From positions 32,001 through 96,000 of the forward strand of contig JBIKUX010000004.1 in assembly GCA_044347345.1 (NCBI GenBank): 64,000 nt of DNA. The letters run 5' to 3'. Both the position numbers and the translations under genes were made by a program. The notes beneath the pieces were generated by a model, which saw nothing but the letters and a program-made list of their open reading frames with translations, did not search any database and had not been told where the DNA came from. Origin of the DNA: Bdellovibrionota bacterium. GTDB lineage: Bacteria; Bdellovibrionota_C; UBA2361; JBIKUX01. Positions within the stretch are counted from its first letter, which is position 1, and every line of letters starts with the position of its first letter. Below, one piece after another: positions 32,671 through 64,000 of the stretch.

Positions 32671-32682
32671 CTATCACGAAAC

Positions 32683-32755
<73 letters not shown>

Positions 32756-32928
32756 ATAAATTTGCTCTTGCCGTTAAACTCAAACACGCTAACAAGCTTA
32801 CTATGATGCATAATTGCTTTGTAGTATTGGCTAGATTTTTTGTAGTAAAGGCTAAATTCACAAAAAAGCTAAGTTAACAGCAAACTTACATTCATAGCAA
32901 TAAACGAGAATGTTGCGATAAATGATAA

Positions 32929-33004
32929 TGGAGCGGGAGACGAGGCTCGAACTCGCGACCCTCAGCTTGGAAGGCTGATGCTCTACCATTTGAGCTACTC
33001 CCGC
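32929..33004 (-). tRNA. tRNA-Gly(TCC)
   Basis: GCGGGAG acceptor, TCAGC-CT TCC AA-GCTGA, 3' CCA encoded. Confidence 0.97.
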
Positions 33005-33091
33005 ATTATTTTAAAAAACTTACAACCTTTATGATAAACGCTTTTTAACTACATTAAAATATCTAAACCTTTTAAGTAAATACAGTAAAAA

Positions 33092-33174
33092 TGGTGAGTG
33101 CAGGATTCGAACCTGCGTAGGCGTCCGCCAACAGATTTACAGTCTGCCCCCTTTAGCCACTCGGGCAACTCACC
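33092..33174 (-). tRNA. tRNA-Tyr(GTA)
   Basis: GCAGA-CT GTA AA-TCTGT, long variable arm, GGTTCGAATCC. Confidence 0.96.
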
Positions 33175-33261
33175 TTATCATTTTTGGCTAAAGATATATT
33201 AAATCCAATATATTCCTTTTAAACCAAATAACCAAACTGACCAAGTAATTATAAGCAATCA

Positions 33262-33334
33262 AGCTGACAACGGGACTCGAACCCATAACCTGCTGATTAC
33301 AAATCAGCTGCTCTACCAATTGAGCTATGTCAGC
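33262..33334 (-). tRNA. tRNA-Thr(TGT)
   Basis: GCTGA-TT TGT AA-TCAGC, GGTTCGAGTCC. Confidence 0.96.
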
Positions 33335-33477
33335 ACTCTACTTAATTCTTGTGCCATCAAGTCTACAATGGAAAGGTAGATAGTTGTAGCTCTCTTGTAA
33401 AGAGCAGTTAAGCGTCTCTTTTAATCTTCAGCCTTATTTACAACTTGGTCGAGCTTCCTCATACTCATGCTGCTGTT

Positions 33478-33553
<76 letters not shown>

Positions 33554-33761
33554 TTACAAAAATTACATTAGACATTTTTAGTCAGTAGATACATTTAGTC
33601 AGAAAAAGGTAAGACAAAATTGGCTGAATAAGGATTTAAGGTAAATCCAGAGTTCGCATACGAAAAGCATTAGAGGCCGAAAGTTTTTGGGCTAACAATG
33701 CAGTTTATTTGTTATATGTAATGTTTTGTAGGCGCTTCGATTTTAGGCCAAAAACTCTGGT

Positions 33762-34382
33762 TTAAAAATCTGGGCCAAATCCCTCTAATTGAAATGCACA
33801 GTAAAAACAGTTAAACATAGCTTCTGCCCCACATACGGCGGTAGGTACTGTTTCTGGTTTGAGGTAGTTCTCCAAAAAAGTTAAACATTCGCGCCATTTA
33901 GTTGATGTCGATTCCCTATAGGATAAGAAGTAATTCAACGCCTCTGCTGGTACTTTTCTATCGAATAACTTAGCAATTGTAGTGCCTCCGAGGGTGGAAC
34001 CTTCAACAACATATACACCCCCTAAAAAATAACTGGGGTTGGTTAAAAAATTTGAGGGAAGTGGCACTAAACTGGGAATAGTACCGTTTAAGGTAGCGAG
34101 GCTTTGCTCAAGTAAAATACTTTTTTCGCGCTCTTTGAGTAGCTCTGTGAATGTCGAAAAAAAATTAGGTATCACCAATTTTTCCCACGAAAAAATTATG
34201 CGAGCGTGGGCTTTTAGTAGTCTGGTTAAAAATGATTCATTTAAAGATTGAGCATTGAAACTAACCAAAGCATCGAGGGCAGCATGAAGTTTTGCAGTGT
34301 GCAACCTTAATTCTTTAACCATGGACGGGCGAGGATAAGTGTGATGTTGTGTTGCTGAATTAGGTGACCAAGATGGTTTCAT
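33762..34382 (-). CDS. Biliverdin-producing heme oxygenase (BphO-like)
   Basis: LRLHTAKLH (proximal His), YVVEGSTLGG, W..C..FL, AEAMF; start likely 34382 or 34322 (track start 34457 overlaps gltX). Confidence 0.85.
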   Translation of the reverse strand: MKPSWSPNSATQHHTYPRPSMVKELRLHTAKLHAALDALVSFNAQSLNESFLTRLLKAHARIIFSWEKLVIPNFFSTFTELLKEREKSILLEQSLATLNGTIPSLVPLPSNFLTNPSYFLGGVYVVEGSTLGGTTIAKLFDRKVPAEALNYFLSYRESTSTKWRECLTFLENYLKPETVPTAVCGAEAMFNCFYCAFQLEGFGPDF

Positions 34383-34422
34383 GGTAAGTAGGTAACTAAT
34401 TTTATGTGAGGTAATCGCCCAA

Positions 34423-36231
34423 ATGGTACACGATTCATCAACAACTTCTACTAGCAACCCCAGCCGGATCTTATCTTCGCCCTTAAGTCAAATTGAACGA
34501 GAAAACCTGTGTAATCTTCTTTTTCCTGATTTAGAGGCGTTGCCTACCTTGCCAGCCTTGGAAATTCGATATGGAGAGCGTCCTCTTCCACCTAAGGTTA
34601 TGGTAACTCGTTTTGCCCCCAGCCCAACTGGATTTATGCATTTAGGTGCTGTTTATGCCGCCCTAATTAACTATAGGTTTGCTTCTCAGACGGGGGGAAA
34701 ATTTTTGTTGCGGATAGAAGATACTGATCAAAAAAGAAAAGTTGAAGGAGCATTTAATCTGATAGTTGAGTCTCTTGAGATGTTTGGACTCATCCCCAAT
34801 GAAGGATTTGTACCATCAGAAGGTACGGGGACAATTACGGAGATTGGTGATTACGGACCTTATCAACAGAGTAGCAGAGTGTCTCTGTATAGAGCTCATG
34901 TAGCACATCTAATTCGAGAGGGTTCTGCCTATCCATGCTTCGCTTCTGAAGCTCAGCTCAAGGAGATGCAGGAACAACAGCAATTAGAAAGGCAGCGACC
35001 AGGATACTACGGGAGATGGGCTATTTGGCGTGATGCTCCTTTAAACCAAATTAAAGACAGCATTGAACAAGGTATACCCTTTGTTATTAGATTTCGCTCA
35101 ACTGGCGATTACAATAAAAGAATTTCTTGGAAGGATAGTATTCATGAAGTAATGCATCAACCTGAAAATGATTTAGATGCGGTGTTGTTAAAATCTGATG
35201 GTACTTCCCTTTACCATTTAGCTCATGTTGTGGACGATCATTTTATGCGAGTCACGCATGTTATTAGAGGTGATGAGTGGCTTTCGTCGGTGCCTCTTCA
35301 TTTACAATTATTTTCTGCTTTTGGTTATACTCCACCTGTTTACTGTCATTTAGCACCAATTCAAAAGCTTGAATTAGTCGAGGAACAGATTGATGACCAG
35401 ATTCAGCGCCGTGAATCAAGAAGAAAACTCTCAAAGCGCAAAGATCCCGAGGCAAGTGTAAGTTATTATGTTGAGCATGGATATCCACCGGTAGCCGTGT
35501 TGGAGTATCTTCTTCATATAGCTGATTCGAGTTTCGAAGAGTGGCGGTTAAATAATCCGAATGCTACTTGGGCTGATTACGCGCTAAAGTTTCAAAATTT
35601 TTCTCGTTCTGGAGCGTTGGTAGATTTAGAAAAACTTCAGAGTGTAAGCAGAGACGTTGTTTCAAGAATGGATCTAGATATTTTATACCATGACGCTATC
35701 AAGTGGTGTAAGCAATTTGATTCAGAGTTTGCCAGTATATTGGAAGCAAATGATGATTATACTCGCTCTGCCTTGGATATTGAGCGAACTGGTGATAAAG
35801 CAAGCAAGCGCATAGCATCTTGGAGAGACTTACGTCCTCAGCTTTGGTGGTTTTATGATGAATTATTTGTCAATCATCAAGTTTTTCCTTACCCTAAAGT
35901 TTTTATAAACACTGAGGTAGTAGATATTCTTGATAGGTTTATCGCGAGCTATGACGAGTCAGACGACAAAGATACTTGGTTTTTAAAGTGTCAAAAAGTA
36001 GCAGAGGAGCTACAATACGCTCCAACCATTAAGCTTTATAAGAAGAATCCTAATGTATATAAGGCTCATATAGGTGACGTAACTATGGTTATAAGAGTCG
36101 CTATATCTGGCTTAGAGCGGACTCCAGACCTGTATCAGATGCTAAAAGTAATGGGAAGAGATAGAGTAAAAAGCCGTGTTTTAGGCGCAATTGAAAAAAT
36201 AAGAAGTGAATTTAGTCAGGAACAGCGATAA
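34423..36231 (+). CDS. gltX: Glutamate--tRNA ligase, long form
   Basis: TRFAPSPTGFMHLG, RIEDTD, VDDHFM..THVIRGDEW, KLSKR. Confidence 0.93.
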   Translation: MVHDSSTTSTSNPSRILSSPLSQIERENLCNLLFPDLEALPTLPALEIRYGERPLPPKVMVTRFAPSPTGFMHLGAVYAALINYRFASQTGGKFLLRIEDTDQKRKVEGAFNLIVESLEMFGLIPNEGFVPSEGTGTITEIGDYGPYQQSSRVSLYRAHVAHLIREGSAYPCFASEAQLKEMQEQQQLERQRPGYYGRWAIWRDAPLNQIKDSIEQGIPFVIRFRSTGDYNKRISWKDSIHEVMHQPENDLDAVLLKSDGTSLYHLAHVVDDHFMRVTHVIRGDEWLSSVPLHLQLFSAFGYTPPVYCHLAPIQKLELVEEQIDDQIQRRESRRKLSKRKDPEASVSYYVEHGYPPVAVLEYLLHIADSSFEEWRLNNPNATWADYALKFQNFSRSGALVDLEKLQSVSRDVVSRMDLDILYHDAIKWCKQFDSEFASILEANDDYTRSALDIERTGDKASKRIASWRDLRPQLWWFYDELFVNHQVFPYPKVFINTEVVDILDRFIASYDESDDKDTWFLKCQKVAEELQYAPTIKLYKKNPNVYKAHIGDVTMVIRVAISGLERTPDLYQMLKVMGRDRVKSRVLGAIEKIRSEFSQEQR

Positions 36232-36922: not shown

Positions 36923-37630
36923 ATGCAATCGGCAGGAACAATGGAATCGGGCCAAGAACCATCAGCACCAGTTGAGACAGAACAGCAAGATTTAACTGAC
37001 GTCAGTCACGATCAAGTCAACAACGACAACAGTACTGGGGCTCTAAATAAATCGCAAAGTGCAAACAGTAGTAACGTCGTTCAAAGTTCAGACAAGAACA
37101 AAAACCTGCAATGGTATGCCGTGCACGCGTACTCTGGTTTTGAAATGAAGGCTAAAAAAACTTTAGAGGATCGAGTTAAAGCTCACGGCATGAGCGAACA
37201 ATTTGGAGAGATTTTAGTACCTCAAGAGACCGTAGTTGAACTAGTGAAAGGTCAAAAGAAAACTTCCAGTAAGAAGTTCTTTCCAGGATACCTTTTAGTT
37301 CAGATGGTACTGAACAGAGATACCTGGCACTTAGTAAATGAAACTCCAAAGATTTCAGGGTTTTTGGGAGATGCCACTGATCCCGATCCAGTACCACAAG
37401 AAGAAGTTTCGCGCATTTTAGCACAGGTTGAAGAAGGAACCAGTGCTCCACGGTCTAAGGTAAGTTTTGAGCAAGGAGAGCCCGTAAAAGTGATTGATGG
37501 ACCGTTTGCTGATTTTAATGGAACTATTGACGAAGTTAGACCAGAAAAAGAAAAAGTTAGGGTTTTAATTAGTATTTTTGGACGAGCTACTCCGGTGGAG
37601 CTAAATTTCTCTCAAGTTGAAAAACTGTAG
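36923..37630 (+). CDS. nusG: Transcription factor NusG with N-terminal extension
   Basis: WYAVHAYSGFE, FFPGY, KOW DGPFADF.G, IFGRATPVEL. Confidence 0.97.
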   Translation: MQSAGTMESGQEPSAPVETEQQDLTDVSHDQVNNDNSTGALNKSQSANSSNVVQSSDKNKNLQWYAVHAYSGFEMKAKKTLEDRVKAHGMSEQFGEILVPQETVVELVKGQKKTSSKKFFPGYLLVQMVLNRDTWHLVNETPKISGFLGDATDPDPVPQEEVSRILAQVEEGTSAPRSKVSFEQGEPVKVIDGPFADFNGTIDEVRPEKEKVRVLISIFGRATPVELNFSQVEKL

Positions 37631-40632: not shown

Positions 40633-43600
40633 GTGGGTATGAAAGATTCTCTGAAGACTAATGTCCGGCTCCGTCGCAGTCACTCGAAGATTGAAGAAGT
40701 AGTCCAAGTTCCAGACTTGATTCAAATTCAAAAACAATCATATGAGAGATTTTTACAAGTTGGGGTACCTCCGGAAAAAAGGGAGGATATAGGACTGCAG
40801 AAAGTTTTCAAATCTGTGTTTCCTATCAGAGATTATAATAATACTGCTTCATTGGAGTTTGTATCTTATTCTCTTGGAACCCCGAAATATGATGTAGAGG
40901 AGTGTCGCGATAGAGGAATGACCTGGGCGGCTCCCCTTCGTGTAACTATCCAACTTATTCTCTGGGATATAGATGCAGAAACAGGAAGTCGGACTTTAAG
41001 CGCGCTGAAGGAGGATGTTGTCTACTTTGGTGAAATTCCTCTTATGACAGAGCGAGGTACCTTTATGGTAAATGGTACCGAGCGAGTTATAGTAAGTCAG
41101 CTTCATCGGTCTCCAGGGGTGTTCTTTGATCACGACGGTGGGAAGAGTCATATTTCAGGCAAATTACTATATTCTGCAAGGATAATTCCGTACCGAGGTT
41201 CATGGATAGATTTTGAATTTGATATAAAAGATCTATTGTTTGTACGAATTGATAGACGTCGCAAGTTAAACGCATCTGTTCTGCTGCGTGCTCTTGGTAT
41301 GTGTGAGGACGAGATTTTAAGTACATACCACAAAACAGATGAAATAAAATTTAGCAAGCGAGGGATAGTTACAAAAGTATTTAAGGCTAGTCAACTTGAG
41401 GGTCAAAAATCATTTCGAGAAATTAAGTCCGACAGCAAGGTGATTGTAAGGCAGGGGGGCAAGTTTAACAGGGCGGTAATCCGTAGATTAAAGGAAGCGG
41501 ATATAAGTGAGATCGAAATAGATCCGGATTCAGTTTCAGGAATGGTAAGTGCGCATACTATTCTTCATGTTGAAGAAGAGGTAGTAAATCGAAAGACTGG
41601 TGAGGTTTTAGCTGAGCAGGGCGAAGTTATTATTGGTTGGGAATCGATTAAAGAAAGATTCAAGTCTTTAGCAGAGTTATTAAATGAGGCCGATGCGCGT
41701 GTTGAGCTAAACAAGGCCCGTATAATAATCAACGCTGGTGAAGAGCTTGTTCCTGACAAAATAAATCAAAAAGAAGAGATTGTTGAAGAGGGTACAGTTT
41801 CCGCTCTCAAGAGGATTGGTATAGAGTCGATTGAGGTTTTATTCCTCGATGACCATCATATAGGTGACTCTCTGCTTAGGACACTTTGGTCTGATAAAAT
41901 GACCAATGACGTAAATGATCTATATGCAAGATTAACTGGCCAAGCTTGTGAGGATAGTTTAATTGAGATATACAGGCGTCTTCGTCCTGGAGATCCTCCA
42001 AGACCAGAGACTGCAACATCCACTTTTAAGAACTTGTTTTTTAACTCTGATAGATATGATCTATCAGATATTGGTCGTTATAAGATTAATCACAAGCTCT
42101 TTATATCTCAGGGACGAGAAGCTCCACCTTTGGATCAAGGAACCCTATCTATCGAAGATATTAAAGAAACAGTCCGTTATCTATTGGAATTGAGAAATTC
42201 TAATGATCCAATCCGCCACTCTGTGGATGATATCGACCATTTGGGAAATAGACGAATACGCTCAGTTGGTGAGTTAGTCGAAAATCAATTTCGAATTGGA
42301 CTGGTTCGTATGGAGCGTGCGGTCAAGGAACGCATGGGCATGCAAGATATAGACACTCTGGTTCCACAGGATCTTATTAATTACAAACCTGTTGCTGCAG
42401 TTGTTAAGGAGTTTTTTGGGTCATCTCAGTTATCTCAATTTATGGATCAAACAAATCCTCTATCAGAGGTAACTCACAAGCGACGTTTATCAGCTCTCGG
42501 GCCAGGTGGATTAACTAGAGACAGAGCTGGATTCGAAGTTAGGGATGTAAACCCTACTCATTACGGTCGGATTTGTCCAATAGAAACACCAGAGGGGCCA
42601 AATATTGGTTTGATAGCTTCACTTGCAGTTTACGCTAGAGTAAATGAATTTGGTTTTATTGAAACCCCATATAGAGTAGTTGATAGTACAAATGCTGTTA
42701 GTTCAGATATTGTTTACTTGTCAGCACTTGAGGAGGAACGTGAAACAATAGCACAGGCTAGCGCGCCACTTAATGACGGGGGAAAATTCGCAGAACAATT
42801 AGTTTCATCACGACGGAATGGTGAATATGTTCTTTCTCCTTCTGATGATGTAACTAAGATGGATGTTAGTCCCCGTCAAATCGTGAGCGTCGCTGCATCT
42901 CTTATTCCATTTTTAGAAAATGATGATGCAAACAGGGCACTCATGGGTTCTAATATGCAGCGTCAGGCTGTACCCTGTTTAAAAGCACAGGCGCCCCTTG
43001 TAGGAACTGGAATCGAAAGAATAGTTGCGCGTGATTCAGGGGCAACAAAAGTTGCTCGTCGTTCCGGAAAGGTAGTATCGGTAGACTCCGAAAGAATCGT
43101 AGTAAAAGCTGACCAGATTAGTGATGACCAACTAGATACAGGGGTTGATATTTACAAGCTTGTAAAATATCGACGCTCTAATCAAAATACCTGCCTAAAT
43201 CAGCGTCCAATCGTGAGAGCCGGTGAAGAGGTAGCTGCTGGTGAGGTAATAGCAGACGGTCCAAGCACTGATATGGCAGAACTCGGGCTAGGCCAGAACG
43301 TAGTCGTAGCGTTTATGCCATGGGGTGGCTATAACTTCGAAGATTCAATCCTTATAAATGAAAAATGTGTTGAGAAGGATATTTTCACCTCTATCCATAT
43401 TGAAGAATTCGAATGTATAGCTCGAGATACAAAGTTAGGGAAGGAAGAGATAACCAGAGATATTCCGAATGTCGGAGAGGAAGCCTTAAAAAATCTAGAT
43501 GATTCAGGCATTATTTGTGTCGGTGCTGAAGTCAAGCCCGGTGATATTTTAGTTGGTAAAATAACTCCAAAGAGTGAGACTCAGCTGAGCCCTGAAGAAA

Positions 43601-45093
43601 AATTACTACGGGCTATATTTGGTGAAAAGGCTGGTGAAGTTAGGGATACAAGTTTGAAGCTGCCACCCGGAGTGGAAGGGACGGTAATTTCCGCTCAGGT
43701 ATTTACTCGAAAAGGAATCGAAAAGGATGAGCGTACCCTAGGTATAGAAAGGCGAGAGGTGGCTCGGTTAGAGCAAGACCAAAGAGATGAAATTAAAATT
43801 ATAATAGATGCCGCATTCTCTGAAATTAGGGATATTCTTTTAGGTCAAGTTACTACTGGTCGTCTTGTTGATGACAGAAGAGAAGAGTTGCTTCCTAAGG
43901 GTGTCCAGTTGACAGTAGACCATCTCAAAGAAATCCCTTTTGAGTATTTACGAGATATTCAAATTGGTGATGAGCTCGGTCAGGAACGAGTTAATCGTAT
44001 AGTAGTTAGTACCGGACAATTAATTAACAGTAAAAGGGCTGTGCTTTCTGAAAAGATAGCTCGACTTCAGGAGGGTGATGAATTAGCTCCTGGAGTTATA
44101 AAGTTGGTGAAGGTATTTATTGCGATTAAGCGTAAGCTACAAGTAGGTGATAAGTTGGCAGGCCGCCACGGAAATAAAGGTGTCCTCTCAAGGGTCTTAC
44201 CTCAGGAGGATATGCCTTATCTTGCAGATGGTACACCTGTCGATATTGTACTTAATCCCCTAGGTGTTCCTTCTCGTATGAATGTTGGCCAGATTTTAGA
44301 GACTCATCTTGGCCTCGCTTCTTGGGAATTAGGTAGAAAATTAAGAGATCAACTTGAACCTCTTATTGATGTAGCTACAGGATTGGAGCGTTCAGATGTT
44401 TCTGATGAAAATAAAAAACGAGGAATTGGGTCTGTACGGGAGCTTTTAGAGAAAGTTTTTGGCACACGAACAGAGGGAAAATTTATCAGGTCGCTATCAG
44501 ATAAGTCAGTCCTTGAGTTTGCAAGACGTTCAATTGGAGGTATTCACTTTGCTAGTCCGGTTTTTGACGCGACGAATGAAGATGAAATAGAACAACTATT
44601 AAAAGTTTCTGGTTTGGATGGTACAGGCCAGATTCAGTTGTATGATGGGCGCACTGGAGAACCTTTTAGTGAGAAGGTTACAGTAGGTGTCATGTATATG
44701 CTCAAACTTGATCACCTAGTTGATGATAAAATTCATGCTAGATCTACTGGGCCATATTCTTTAGTTACCCAGCAGCCTCTTGGTGGTAAAGCTCAGTTTG
44801 GTGGACAACGTCTAGGAGAGATGGAAGTATGGGCTCTTGAAGCTTATGGAGCCGCCTATACTCTTCAGGAGTTTTTGACCGTTAAATCTGATGATGTGAC
44901 TGGGCGTACTAGAATGTACGAGTCAATTGTCAAGGGTGAGCATGTTCTTGAACCAGGTTTGCCGGAATCATTCAATGTAATGATGAAGGAGTTACAATCT
45001 TTGGGACTAGATGTTGAACTAATCGAAGAGGCAAGTCAGGAGGGCGTTGAAAATTCTGACACTGAATTTGGTATGGGGAGCCAAGCAGCATAG
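40633..45093 (+). CDS. rpoB: RNA polymerase beta subunit
   Basis: [37 protein letters not shown]; start GTG 40633 or ATG 40639. Confidence 0.99.
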
Positions 45094-45745
45094 AGTGAAA
45101 TAGACTAAAAGTTAAAACTTTTATTTTCTAAATTGTTTTTATGCCTGTATCGTTGACTTATAATGAAAATGTCGGTATTACAGCACGACAATATTCGGAC
45201 AAAGAATAAGGGGTGCAATGGCTTAGTCAACACCCTTCAAAATGTCTAATTAAAAAGCTTAAGCATAATAGCAAAAGCAGTTTTATCGAGAAGTTTCAAA
45301 GATTACGAATCCAGCTTGGACTCGTACTTGTAAAAAATGTTGCTCAAAAAAAGCAAAGAGATATACGCTAACTTTTTTAAAAGCAAATTTCTTCAAAAGA
45401 TAAAATTAAAAAGATAAAAAGTGATAAATGAAATCCAGTTAGAGGTAAACCTCAACTGCACATGTAATCAATTTATTATCAAGCGAAGTATTTGAAATTC
45501 GCAAGTTTCAAAAAGGTACGGTTATAACGACCAAACCGAAAGGAAACTGCTCAAAGAGTATTCAATAACAAAGTCTGACTTGAGTCTCAGTTCTTGTTAA
45601 GAAGCTCGAAGAAAAAAAGTTTCAAACATGGAGATGAACTTATATAGAGTTTAGGTTAACATCTAGCATCAACCAGAGAGCGTGTGGGTTAATCGCCGGA
45701 TTTTAAGATATTTAAGTTTAAGTATTTGGAGAGGCACCGAAAAAA

Positions 45746-46117
45746 ATGCCAACGATAAATCAACTTGTAAGAAAAGCAAGGTTAAAAAAGAAAGCTCGAA
45801 CAAAGTCTCCAGCTTTGGAAAGGTGTCCACAGAAAAGAGGCGTTTGTACAAGGGTATACACACAGACACCTAAGAAGCCCAACTCAGCCTTGAGAAAGGT
45901 AGCTCGTGTAAGGTTAACTACAGGTATGGAGGTTACTAGCTACATTCCAGGAGTTGGCCACAATCTTCAGGAACACTCAGTAGTGCTAATTCGAGGTGGA
46001 AGAGTAAAAGATTTGCCTGGGGTTAGATATCATATTATCCGAGGTAAGTTGGAAGCTCATGGGGTACAGGATAGACGGCAAGGTCGCTCTAAGTACGGTG
46101 CAAAACGTCCAAAATAG
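45746..46117 (+). CDS. rpsL: 30S protein S12
   Basis: [27 protein letters not shown]. Confidence 0.99.
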
Positions 46118-46211
46118 TATTCAGTACATATAGCTTAATTCTGATTAAATAAATAAATGCAAAATAAAAAAGTTTAAATGGGAAAAGCTAAAGTTTAATC
46201 TCGGATAATTT

Positions 46212-46682
46212 ATGACACGCAGAAAAAAAGACTTTTCACGAGAACTATTACCAGATCCAAAATATGCGGATCTTACCATTACTAGATTGGTGAACACTCT
46301 AATGAAAGATGGTAAAAAGAGTGTTGTTGAGAAGGCGTGTTATGATGCCCTCGACATAATTACTGAACGAATGAAGTCAGATTCGTTGCAGATATTTAAG
46401 CAAGCAATCGACAATCTTAAGCCTATGGTAGAAGTGCGTAGTCGTCGAGTAGGTGGAGCTACATATCAAGTTCCAACAGAGGTCAGACCGAGAAGAGCTG
46501 AATCTCTTGCTATCAGATGGTTAGTCGATGCTGCAAATGGAAGAAGTGAGAGAGGCATAGCTTTGCGCCTCGCAGGAGAACTAATGGATGCTTCGTCAAA
46601 TAGAGGCGTCGCTATTAAAAAGCGTGAGGACACTCATAGAATGGCTGAGGCAAATAAAGCCTTCTCGCACTTTCGCTGGTAG
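46212..46682 (+). CDS. rpsG: 30S protein S7
   Basis: [24 protein letters not shown]. Confidence 0.99.
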
Positions 46683-46748
46683 GAGGATTGCCTTCGGGTT
46701 TATAGGCAATTACTAAAAAATTTACGCTAAAAGAATATAATCCACGCA

Positions 46749-48842
46749 ATGTCAAAAAAAGATCTCTCTACAACTCGAAATATCGGTATAATGGCACATA
46801 TTGATGCCGGTAAAACAACCACAACCGAAAGAATTCTTTTTTATACTGGAATAAATTATAAGATAGGCGAAGTTCATGAAGGTGCTGCCACAATGGACTA
46901 TATGGAGTTGGAGCAAGAGCGAGGGATTACCATTACCTCTGCAGCAACTACCTGTGAATGGAAAGGTTCAGACGGTCAACGGATAGCTCATAAGATTAAT
47001 ATTATCGACACTCCTGGCCACGTTGATTTTACGATTGAAGTCGAGCGTAGCCTAAGGGTTTTAGATGGAGCAATTGCCGTTTTCGACGGAGTAAGTGGGG
47101 TTGAACCACAGTCTGAAACTGTATGGCGTCAGGCTAATAAGTTTAATGTGCCCAGATTCTGTTTTATCAACAAACTTGATAGGATGGGAGCAAATTTTGA
47201 GAAAGGGGTAGAATCAATTCGTAATAGGCTTCAAGCAAATGCTGTTCCCGTCCAATTGCCGATAGGAATAGAGAGTGATTTTATAGGTATAGTCGATTTA
47301 GTAGAGATGCAAGGGATCTACTATCTTGATGAGACTAAGGGTGCTCAGTTTGAAATCCGACCAATACCAGATGAACTTGTTGAGCCTGCAAAGAGAGCTA
47401 GAGAGAGCTTAATTGAGGCAGCTGCTGATTTTGATGAAGAGCTTCTGGAGCGTTATTTGGCTGGAAATGAGATTTCTCCAGCTGACCTAAGAGCGGCTAT
47501 TAGGAAGGGAACCTTGTCAATGAAGCTCTTTCCGGTTTTATGTGGAAGTGCTTTTAAAAATAAGGGCGTACAACCTTTATTGGATGCGGTTATCGATTAT
47601 CTTCCTTCACCACTCGATGTACCTCCTGTTGAAGGAGTAGACCCTTCATCTTCTGATGGGGCAATATTATCTCGCTCAGCAAACCCCAATGAACCGTTCT
47701 GTGCATTAGCTTTTAAAATTATATCGGATCCTTTTGTAGGAACACTGACCTTCTTTAGAGTTTATTCCGGAACAATAACTCCAGGTACAGCAGTGTACAA
47801 TGCGACACGAAGCGAAAAAGAAAGAATCGGTCGTATTGTAAAAATGCACGCTGATAAGAGAGAGGAAGTTAAGGAGATTTCTGCCGGCGACATTGGCGCT
47901 GCGGTCGGTCTTAAATCAACTATAACAGGCGATACGCTATGTGAGCCTGGTTCATTAATTGTACTCGAATCAATCAAAGCACCTGACCCGGTTATAAGCG
48001 TGGCTATTGAGCCTAAGACTAAGGCCGATGAAGAGAAGCTTGGTTTATCATTGATGAAGCTTGCAAAGGAAGATCCATCCTTAAGGGTAACATCTGACCC
48101 CGATACAAAACAGACTATCATCGCTGGAATGGGTGAGCTTCATTTAGATATTATTAAGTCACGACTTGAACGAGAATATGGCGTTCAAACAGATGTAGGT
48201 AAACCTCAAGTAGCTTATCGAGAAACTATTCTTGGTAAAGTTGAAAATGAAACTAAGTATGCTAAGCAGTCAGGTGGTAGAGGTCAGTTTGGTCATGTCT
48301 TTCTTCGTGTTGAGCCGCTTGAAAGAGGAGCCGGGGTTCAATTTGTTGATGAAATAAAAGGGGGAGTAATACCTAAAGAGTACGTTCCCGCAGTTGAAAA
48401 TGGCGTTCGGGAAGCATTGACTGGGGGTATTTTTGCAGGATATCCAGTTATAGACTTAAAAATTGCTTTATTTTATGGAAGCTTTCACGAAGTTGACTCT
48501 AGCGAAATAGCTTTTAAAATAGCTGGCTCGATGTGTGTAAAGGAAGCATGCAGAGAGGCCGGATTGCAACTTCTTGAGCCAATTATGGCGGTAGAAGTAG
48601 TCTGTCCTGATGATTTTATAAGCAATGTTGTTGGTGACTTGAATAGGAGGAGAGCTCGTATACAAGGAATGGAGCCAAGGGCGGGTGCACAAGCTGTAAA
48701 AGCTGAAGTTCCATTGTCGGAGATGTTTGGATATTCTACTGACTTACGTTCTGGTACGCAGGGTAGAGGTACGTTTTCTATGGAGTATGATCATTATGCG
48801 CCTGTACCTCAGCATATTGCTGAACAGATAGCTAAAAAGTAG
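46749..48842 (+). CDS. fusA: Elongation factor G
   Basis: [30 protein letters not shown]. Confidence 0.99.
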
Positions 48843-48987
48843 TTAAGTACAGTTAAAGTGTAGATCAGGATAAAGCTAATAGTGAAAAGATTATTTACAG
48901 AGTAGGTCGATAATAATTAGAAAAATTATATCGATATGTTTAATATTTAAATGGTTATACTAATAAAAGTAAAAACTGGAGCAAATA

Positions 48988-50184
48988 ATGGCAAAGGGTA
49001 AATTTGAACGTACAAAACCCCACGTAAATATAGGTACTATCGGTCACGTTGACCATGGTAAAACCACATTAACGGCGGCTTTAGTAAACACTCAGGCTGG
49101 ACGTTCTTTGGCAAAAGTAAAAAGCTATCAAGATATTGCCAAGGGGGGGACAGTAAGAGATGCAACTAAAACTGTAACCATTGCTTCAGCTCATGTTGAG
49201 TACGAGACAGCCAATCGTCACTACGCTCATGTTGACTGCCCAGGGCACGCAGATTATGTAAAAAATATGATTACTGGTGCAGCTCAAATGGACGGCGCTA
49301 TTCTTGTAGTCAGTGCGGCTGATGGTCCGATGCCTCAGACTCGAGAACATATATTACTCGCGCGTCAAGTGGGAGTTCCAAAGATTGTTGTTTTTTTGAA
49401 CAAAGTCGATGTCGTAAATGACCCTGAATTACTTGAACTTGTGGAAATGGAAGTCAGGGATCTTTTAAATCAATATGATTTTCCAGGTGATGATACTCCG
49501 ATAATACGCGGTAGCGCCCTTAAAGCACTTAACGGTGAAGATAGTGAAATAGGTATTGGCGCAATTGATAAGTTACTAGCAACTATTGACGAATATGTTC
49601 CTATCCCAGAAAGGGAGATTGATAAGGCTTTTTTGATGTCTGTTGAGGATGTATTTTCGATTGCAGGGCGTGGCACAGTAGCAACAGGTCGTGTAGAACG
49701 CGGGAGAGTGAAGGTTGGAGAGGAAGTAGCAATAGTAGGTCTTCGTCCAATTCAAAAGACTACCGTAACCGGTGTTGAGATGTTTAATAAACAACTCGAT
49801 GAGGGAGTAGCTGGTGACAACGTAGGTTGTTTGCTTAGGGGATTGAAGCGAGAAGATATCGAAAGAGGGCAGGTATTAGCCGCTCCAGGTAGTATAACTC
49901 CACACAAGAAATTTAAAGCTGAAGCTTATATCCTGAAGAAGGAGGAAGGTGGACGTCATAAGCCGTTTTTTGGTGGCTATCGTCCTCAGTTCTATTTCAG
50001 AACAACGGATGTGACTGGAGTAATTAAGCTACCTCAAGGCGTTGAGATGGCAATGCCAGGTGACCACATAAATTTGGATGTAGAGCTTTATACAGAAATA
50101 GCACTCGAGCGTGGAGTAAGGTTTGCTATCCGTGAAGGTGGAAGGACTGTTGGCTCTGGTGTCGTAACAGAAATTATCGAATAG
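48988..50184 (+). CDS. tuf: Elongation factor Tu (atypical switch I)
   Basis: [40 protein letters not shown]. Confidence 0.98.
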
Positions 50185-57409: not shown

Positions 57410-57487
57410 CGTTAAGGGACTTTTTTGTGAAAGTGATGAGCTTTGGAGCTCATTAGGGAATAAAATTGCGTAGTTTAATTAAATGTT

Positions 57488-63871: not shown

Positions 63872-64000
63872 ATCTGCTGAGTGTCAGAAAAATCATTACC
63901 ATGTTATCTATCGTGAAAAGTTTTTGATAGGACAGGTTTAATAAGTAAAAAAGTACCACTAAATAGGTTTGGGTGTAGAGTACAGAGCTATCACTCTCAA

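Follow-up and report, generated by a model that had tools for sequence, protein, structure and literature searches.

Introduction

Where is the gene for the β′ subunit of RNA polymerase in a genome in which rpoB is followed by rpsL, and how did it come to lie there? The question is raised by a stretch of 64,000 nucleotides (here called the window) from an uncultured freshwater (lake) bacterium with a genome of 2.5 Mb, available as a metagenome bin of 68 contigs (95.8% complete, 0.37% contaminated). The first-pass annotation of the window had proposed that rpoC was relocated or that the assembly was collapsed at this point.

Few known gene pairs are as stable as rpoB-rpoC, and the locus described here is a real, rare exception to this near-invariant arrangement. 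The existence of a natural exception means that pairing is not indispensable. Nor does assembly of the core enzyme from unsplit β and β′ subunits depend on a single mRNA, translational coupling or co-translational contact. The locus provides a test case for the reason why the pair is otherwise conserved, be it stoichiometry, speed of assembly or the difficulty of breaking it. It also holds a caution, in that synteny-based bin checks would wrongly flag it as misassembled. Its reach is limited, as the proteins are ordinary and the split is carried by one genome, which alone represents its family among the genomes compared.

The rpoB-rpsL Junction

Ahead of rpoB the gene order is the usual one, secE-nusG-rplK-rplA-rplJ, matching that of the relatives G047 and G040, and the final ribosomal gene is rplL, encoding L7/L12 (39931..40338, + strand; TIGR00855, 128.6 bits). 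As in the canonical rplKAJL-rpoBC operon, rpoB comes behind rplL. It is complete and single-copy (40633..45093, + strand, GTG start) and encodes a β subunit of 1486 aa that matches TIGR02013 over profile positions 3-1238 of 1238 (1797 bits, cut-off 801). The conserved motifs are present, and tblastn gave one match in the genome. Against the β/β′ fusion models PRK09603 and PRK14844 the protein scored 1413 and 1388, where 4632 and 5372 are needed, and the earlier statement that RpoB is not a fusion is correct.

Directly behind rpoB, in place of the rpoC of the canonical operon, is rpsL (45746-46117, + strand), the first gene of an intact str operon, rpsL-rpsG-fusA-tuf (45746..50184, + strand), recognized by TIGR00981, TIGR00485, its ORFs and comparison with relatives. 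The canonical str-S10-spc-alpha supercluster continues downstream without interruption, in the order of G047 and G040 save for rpsN and rpsD. The end of a complete rpoB at 45093 and the position of rpsL as the next gene at 45746, from which the first-pass annotation had started, are thus borne out by the ORFs and the full-length TIGR02013 match.

The usual site of rpoC is occupied by a non-coding spacer of 652 bp, 68% A+T (45094..45745, + strand). The ORFs of at least 40 aa that touch it are merely 42-66 aa long. A search for an RpoC remnant in 45000-45800, by tblastn with the genome's own RpoC, returned only matches with E values of 4.9 and 5.6; an RpoC profile search (--max) of the gap gave no match, and neither did Rfam at E ≤ 1 in L044, which contains the gap, or in L001. 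With these results the description of the gap as AT-rich and free of a sizeable ORF or β′-like peptide holds. Its length falls within the range of about 550-1480 bp found for the rpoC-rpsL spacers of relatives; an alignable homologue was sought in 40 relatives, and two short unrelated matches were all that appeared. Most likely the spacer arose by fusion of the rpoB unit, at its 3′ end, to the former leader of the str operon.

The Relocated rpoC Gene

A search for RpoC across the assembly, which the first-pass annotation had recommended, found a single intact copy on contig C44, outside the window (G000:C44:73-4209, − strand), with no rpoB upstream; the proposal that rpoC was relocated is supported. 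The gene encodes 1378 aa with no internal stop, and the protein matches TIGR02386 at positions 2-1145 of 1147, well above the cut-off (1810 vs. 963.5 bits). Catalytic, zinc-binding, bridge-helix and trigger-loop motifs were found, using patterns that we take to be characteristic of these elements, and the protein is a canonical bacterial β′.

The bin has one rpoB, one rpoC and one rpoA, with no extra or paralogous RNA polymerase subunit gene. There is no fused RpoB-RpoC ORF of ~2800 aa; the ORFs of 1486 and 1378 aa lie on different contigs. Nor is β′ divided into rpoC1 and rpoC2: rpoC is a single ORF that falls short of the TIGR02387 cut-off (825 vs. 976), and although TIGR02388 is above its cut-off (684 vs. 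467), this is a partial match inside full-length RpoC. The RNA polymerase is an ordinary α2ββ′ core made of ordinary proteins.

The neighborhood reads gltA-(447 bp)-rpoC-cysS, with the citrate synthase gene gltA upstream and co-oriented. The end of rpoC and the beginning of cysS overlap by one base, common to the rpoC stop codon and the cysS GTG; this is the only cysS in the genome (L062:55-1497, in G000:C25), and C44 overlaps C25 by exactly 127 bp. Judging from the different contigs and different neighbors, the gene for the catalytic β′ subunit would be transcribed apart from rpoB, as it is in cyanobacteria and plastids. The split is visible independently at both ends, as an rpoB without rpoC behind it and an rpoC without rpoB ahead of it, and that the split itself is real we regard as close to certain.

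Rarity and Precedents

Among other genomes of the order at ≥85% completeness, the end of rpoB and the start of rpoC are adjacent in 62 of 72, with 117-354 bp between domain matches. The remaining ten (five cut at contig ends, five with no match) include no split. Adjacency was thus lacking in none of the 62 resolvable genomes, which makes the split more than a matter of chance. In other orders of the class, 19 of 20 genomes have the genes adjacent and one was unresolved. At rpoC loci from a genome collection, rpoB lay upstream in 78 of 80, a set that includes at least three duplicate order genomes, and the other two loci begin at a contig end. The corresponding figure for metagenome loci is 76 of 80 (two of them at 1.2-1.3 kb), with four cut. 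All of these adjacency figures are counts given without a statistical test, since kin are not independent. The near-universal adjacency that the first-pass annotation had asserted, and the synteny comparison that it called for, agree: the pair is kept together in every resolvable relative.

The other side of rpoC is already loose in the order. In 15 relatives rpsL was close to rpoC in four, behind inserted genes in four and absent from the fetched stretch in seven.

Two departures from the usual spacing or number were seen in other material. Metagenome loci L167 and L217, from other bacteria, show a distance of 1.2-1.3 kb from rpoB to rpoC, a stretch that inserted genes probably fill, and the bin G095, contaminated to 6%, contains the rpoB-rpoC pair twice.

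A published survey of rearrangements, mainly in Gammaproteobacteria and Bacilli and not in the lineage studied here, lists 163 events in 204 genomes, none of them at the rpoB/rpoC junction, while the rplL/rpoB and rpoC/rpsL junctions break repeatedly (PMC8046335, Table S6). In the open literature, with few subscription or older papers covered, we found no natural rpoB/rpoC split, and the available portions of two further papers have nothing on one (PMC6735719; PMC2758279). The nearest cases in the survey are rplJL in Haemophilus influenzae (P23) and secY in Bacillus selenitireducens (F84), in which, as here, an essential gene leaves, its neighbors close up, and a single native-type copy is located elsewhere (PMC8046335). 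The present break differs from those events in being at a junction that is unlisted there. In the terms of Brandis (2021), this is a gene gone with the flanking operons still concatenated, rpoB and rpsL being 652 bp apart, and an outside copy that did not come from a distant donor (100 SH-aLRT and AU tests, described below).

In Synechocystis sp. PCC 6803, rpoC1 is reported to be monocistronic, and rpoB and rpoC2 to form an operon (PMC6037674). This is the closest precedent, a gene for the catalytic half of β′ that is transcribed apart from rpoB. It differs from the present case in that β′ is split and one half stays with rpoB, whereas here the whole, unsplit 1378-aa rpoC has left. The Synechocystis arrangement indicates that separate synthesis of core subunits is viable in nature. 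RpoB-RpoC fusions occur in Helicobacter and Wolbachia. These fusions, represented by PRK09603 and PRK14844, also alter the rpoB/rpoC junction, in the opposite direction, and RpoB here ends normally.

When rplKAJL-rpoBC was moved experimentally in Vibrio cholerae, growth was shown to be affected by the position and dosage of the RNA polymerase genes, and the locus is there called universally conserved (PMC12993453). Unlike here, rpoB and rpoC were moved together, and in the text consulted no natural separation is mentioned (PMC12993453).

Origin of the Relocated Gene

RpoC is 76-81% identical to the proteins of order members and 60-66% to those of outsiders, in step with RpoB (73-80% and 54-61%). 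In the RpoC tree it falls inside the order with 100 SH-aLRT and groups with G018, G024 and G047. Rows without full-length RpoB or RpoC were left out of the RpoB and RpoC trees, and three duplicate and four distant outgroup rows were omitted from the RpoC tree and the AU tests. These identities and trees exclude a distant donor of rpoC; an ancient donor within the order is possible, if less likely than a native origin.

An unlikely, though not negligible, alternative to a move of the native gene is xenologous displacement, in which a foreign rpoC, donated by a different order member, inserted behind gltA before the native copy disappeared; cysS and probably rpsD and rpsN underwent the same in this genome. 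The adjoining cysS is foreign, and the free RpoB and RpoC trees differ, the former placing this genome elsewhere, with G002 or G006, with weak support. The conflict is not significant, however: RpoB does not reject the RpoC groupings (p-AU 0.33 and 0.55), and the second constrained tree outscored the free one. The correlation of RpoB and RpoC distance profiles for this genome, 0.76, is within the range of 23 others (0.66-0.97). Moreover, while a distant donor is excluded by the identities given above, there is no close donor either, the nearest RpoC path being 0.43, compared to about 0.14 between G024 and G047. The codon use of rpoC is also nearer to that of its own rpoB (r 0.84) than the codon use of the rpoC of any of 28 relatives is (best 0.82).

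The composition of silent sites can be read both ways. The GC content of four-fold sites is 0.242 in rpoB and 0.320 in rpoC, and the difference of +0.078 is the highest of 30 genomes; the other 29 have a mean of -0.017 (sd 0.022), which puts this genome about four sd above. The rpoC value is still within the genome's own range, at the 75th-95th percentile. We read the raised GC as the mark of a long separation from rpoB, which would make the move an old one. It could alternatively be the trace of a GC-richer donor after incomplete amelioration, as displacement would have it.

The gltA gene and the divergent GroES-like gene beside it form a pair common to G024 and G047, in which a different gene lies behind gltA. 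G047 also shares an ornithine aminotransferase gene upstream of the tRNA cluster. The GroES-looking protein, of 133 aa (L002:6125-6526), is conserved beside gltA in those two relatives; it had no NCBIfam match at E ≤ 1e-10, and its likeness to GroES comes from reading the sequence.

Other Displaced Genes

CysS is 47-56% identical to Verrucomicrobia-labelled and unnamed proteins and 33-41% to the CysS of the order. Grouping with G024 and G047 is rejected (p-AU 1.5e-64), grouping with the main 19-row order clade is borderline (p-AU 0.049), and a single clade of all order rows is not rejected (p-AU 0.46), in a tree that missed two of the 30 order rows. From these comparisons cysS is judged to be foreign, Verrucomicrobia-like and horizontally acquired. 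CysS is polyphyletic across the order, so that such replacement is common there.

Two ribosomal protein genes are also missing from their usual places. There is no rpsN at the rplE-rpsH junction (57410..57487, + strand), a divergent, long-form rpsN being at G000:C45:156418-156579. Nor is there an rpsD at the rpsK-rpoA junction (63872..64000, + strand), where rpoA begins shortly beyond the end of the window; the rpsD, likewise divergent, is at G000:C35:6533-7120. No cysteine zinc motif was found in the translations of either relocated gene, which suggests replacement by zinc-free forms. Both genes are kept in the cluster by G024, G047 and G040; G018 likewise has rpsN elsewhere. Losses of rpsN and rpsD, as seen here, are listed for Bacilli (PMC8046335). 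The lineage is prone to moving genes out of the ribosomal cluster.

Route of the Move and Expression

We consider it probable that the native rpoC moved as a single gene, by duplication followed by loss. The lineage's own rpoC would have left the rplL-rpoB-rpoC-rpsL cluster alone. Since rpoC is essential, a second copy would have arisen first, presumably behind gltA by segmental duplication or an equivalent event. The operon copy would then have been cleanly deleted, with the str-operon leader retained and rpoB joined to it. The same route has been proposed for rplJL and secY (PMC8046335). Neither site in this genome yielded the remains of a duplicate or a mobile element. The two new spacers also lack homology to each other and to the rpoB-rpoC spacers of relatives, so that the breakpoints cannot be placed.

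After such a move, β would be made from the ribosomal-protein transcript and β′ from another mRNA starting in the 447-bp spacer or at gltA, with the horizontally acquired cysS riding on the rpoC transcript. The claim that β and β′ synthesis is uncoupled stands in part, insofar as rpoB and rpoC cannot share an mRNA. The balance of subunits would have to be kept post-transcriptionally, for example by turnover of the unassembled subunit or by feedback. The core assembles in the order α2, α2β and then β′, and does so from separately expressed subunits, so that no new chemistry would be needed.

The 652-bp spacer has a perfect −10 hexamer (45159..45164, + strand) with a −35 element 17 bp upstream that matches at only three of six positions, an unproven candidate for the str-operon promoter. 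Consensus promoter scans of the two spacers gave 3 sites against a shuffle expectation of 2.2 and 1 against 1.9, neither count rising above chance, and did not call the site at 45159; a terminator scan of both found none. Behind the 132 TTGAC sites present in 780 spacers, no −10 consensus peculiar to the lineage could be made out. In the gltA-rpoC spacer there is a 17-bp tandem duplication (L002:4462-4498; 2.2 copies, 95%) with several short related words, repeats which could be regulator sites or decay.

An adaptive reading is improbable, though not negligible. It would have β′ separately controlled and rate-limiting, co-transcribed with gltA and translationally coupled to cysS, so that the supply of RNA polymerase would track carbon flux and not the ribosomal-protein operon, the core being assembled wholly after translation from two mRNAs. 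If true, no earlier example would be known of a free-living bacterium that controls whole rpoB and rpoC genes differently.

Still less probable is a direct cut-and-paste event, or a series of inversions, in which rpoC was never present twice. In its favor, breaks between rpoC and rpsL are frequent in the order, and the tRNA genes ahead of secE are rearranged in every relative examined. In addition, stable folding into a hairpin (z ≤ -2, reaching -9.6) is seen in 12 of 25 rpoB-rpoC spacers of order relatives (L003-L031, L148-L157), which could mean that rpoC was to some degree a unit of its own beforehand. These hairpins, which have no shared sequence and mostly lack a U tract, are possibly sites of mRNA processing or attenuation between the two genes. 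Against a direct transfer, rejoining rpoB to rpsL requires three simultaneous breakpoints, or several inversions through an essential cluster, and the sites carry no repeat or transposase relic. Duplication followed by loss remains the preferred route.

Soundness of the Assembly

The window stretch or part of it is contained in 23 of 24 listed runs, nine of which are flagged as a possible source. The contig layout across the junction was taken from four runs not flagged as source, from three studies. RNA libraries may contain DNA, and contigs cannot show transcript starts; RNA runs were therefore used solely as assembly bridges. One contig of X10 (record 6) spans 44289-48287, from rpoB to rpsL, with 0 differences, and record 21 of X15 covers 44134-45732, to within 14 nt of rpsL. 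In X7, an RNA run, the gap is covered by two contigs that overlap by 26 nt. They meet at 45185-45210, immediately past the −10 hexamer, and depth goes from 12 to 21 at this place, where X10 is unbroken. Among the matches listed, none of the four runs has a joint or loose end inside the gap. Thus the contigs of other runs, standing in for the read mapping across 45.0-45.8 kb that the first-pass annotation had suggested, reveal no missing segment of ~4 kb. Its alternative of a collapsed assembly is not borne out, given independent contigs that cross the gap unchanged and the lack in either spacer of any repeat over 16 bp, the longest word shared with another place, compared to assembly overlaps of 127 bp. 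For the window junction, an artefact is already largely refuted.

By tetranucleotide profile contig C44 fits the bin, with an r of 0.989 where 43 contigs range from 0.919 to 0.998, and end overlaps of exactly 127 bp link it in a chain to four contigs, C37-C39 and C25-C22. The gltA-rpoC and rpoC-cysS junctions are known from one assembly alone. A metagenome scan with RpoC residues 138-237 gave no contig of the species or genus among the matches listed, the best being 71% identical. C57, which carries dnaA, is linked to neither C3 nor C44.

It is true that this is a 68-contig metagenome bin in which 72 bp separate rpoC from the end of its contig, C3 and C44 have no linking end overlaps and the gltA-rpoC junction rests on this assembly, but a collapse of ~4 kb between rpoB and rpsL together with a C44 rpoC that is misjoined or from another organism is very improbable, as contigs of runs from unflagged studies cross the gap unchanged, neither spacer has a repeat over 16 bp, two independent and mutually complementary misjoins would be required, C44 fits the bin in composition and synteny, and misassembly of one operon cannot produce silent-site drift.

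Other Features of the Two Loci

Beyond cysS, a 2980-aa ORF (L062:3282-12224) presumably encodes a protein resembling cyclic β-1,2-glucan synthase. Upstream of secE, genes for tRNA-Trp, tRNA-Gly, tRNA-Tyr and tRNA-Thr lie on the minus strand and one for tRNA-Thr on the plus strand (32682-36231), with no tufB; the order of the tRNA genes differs in each relative examined. A gltX of 602 aa is directly ahead of secE. NusG (36923-37630) has a low-complexity N-terminal extension of 63 residues before the TIGR00922 match, and that of G040 is similar.
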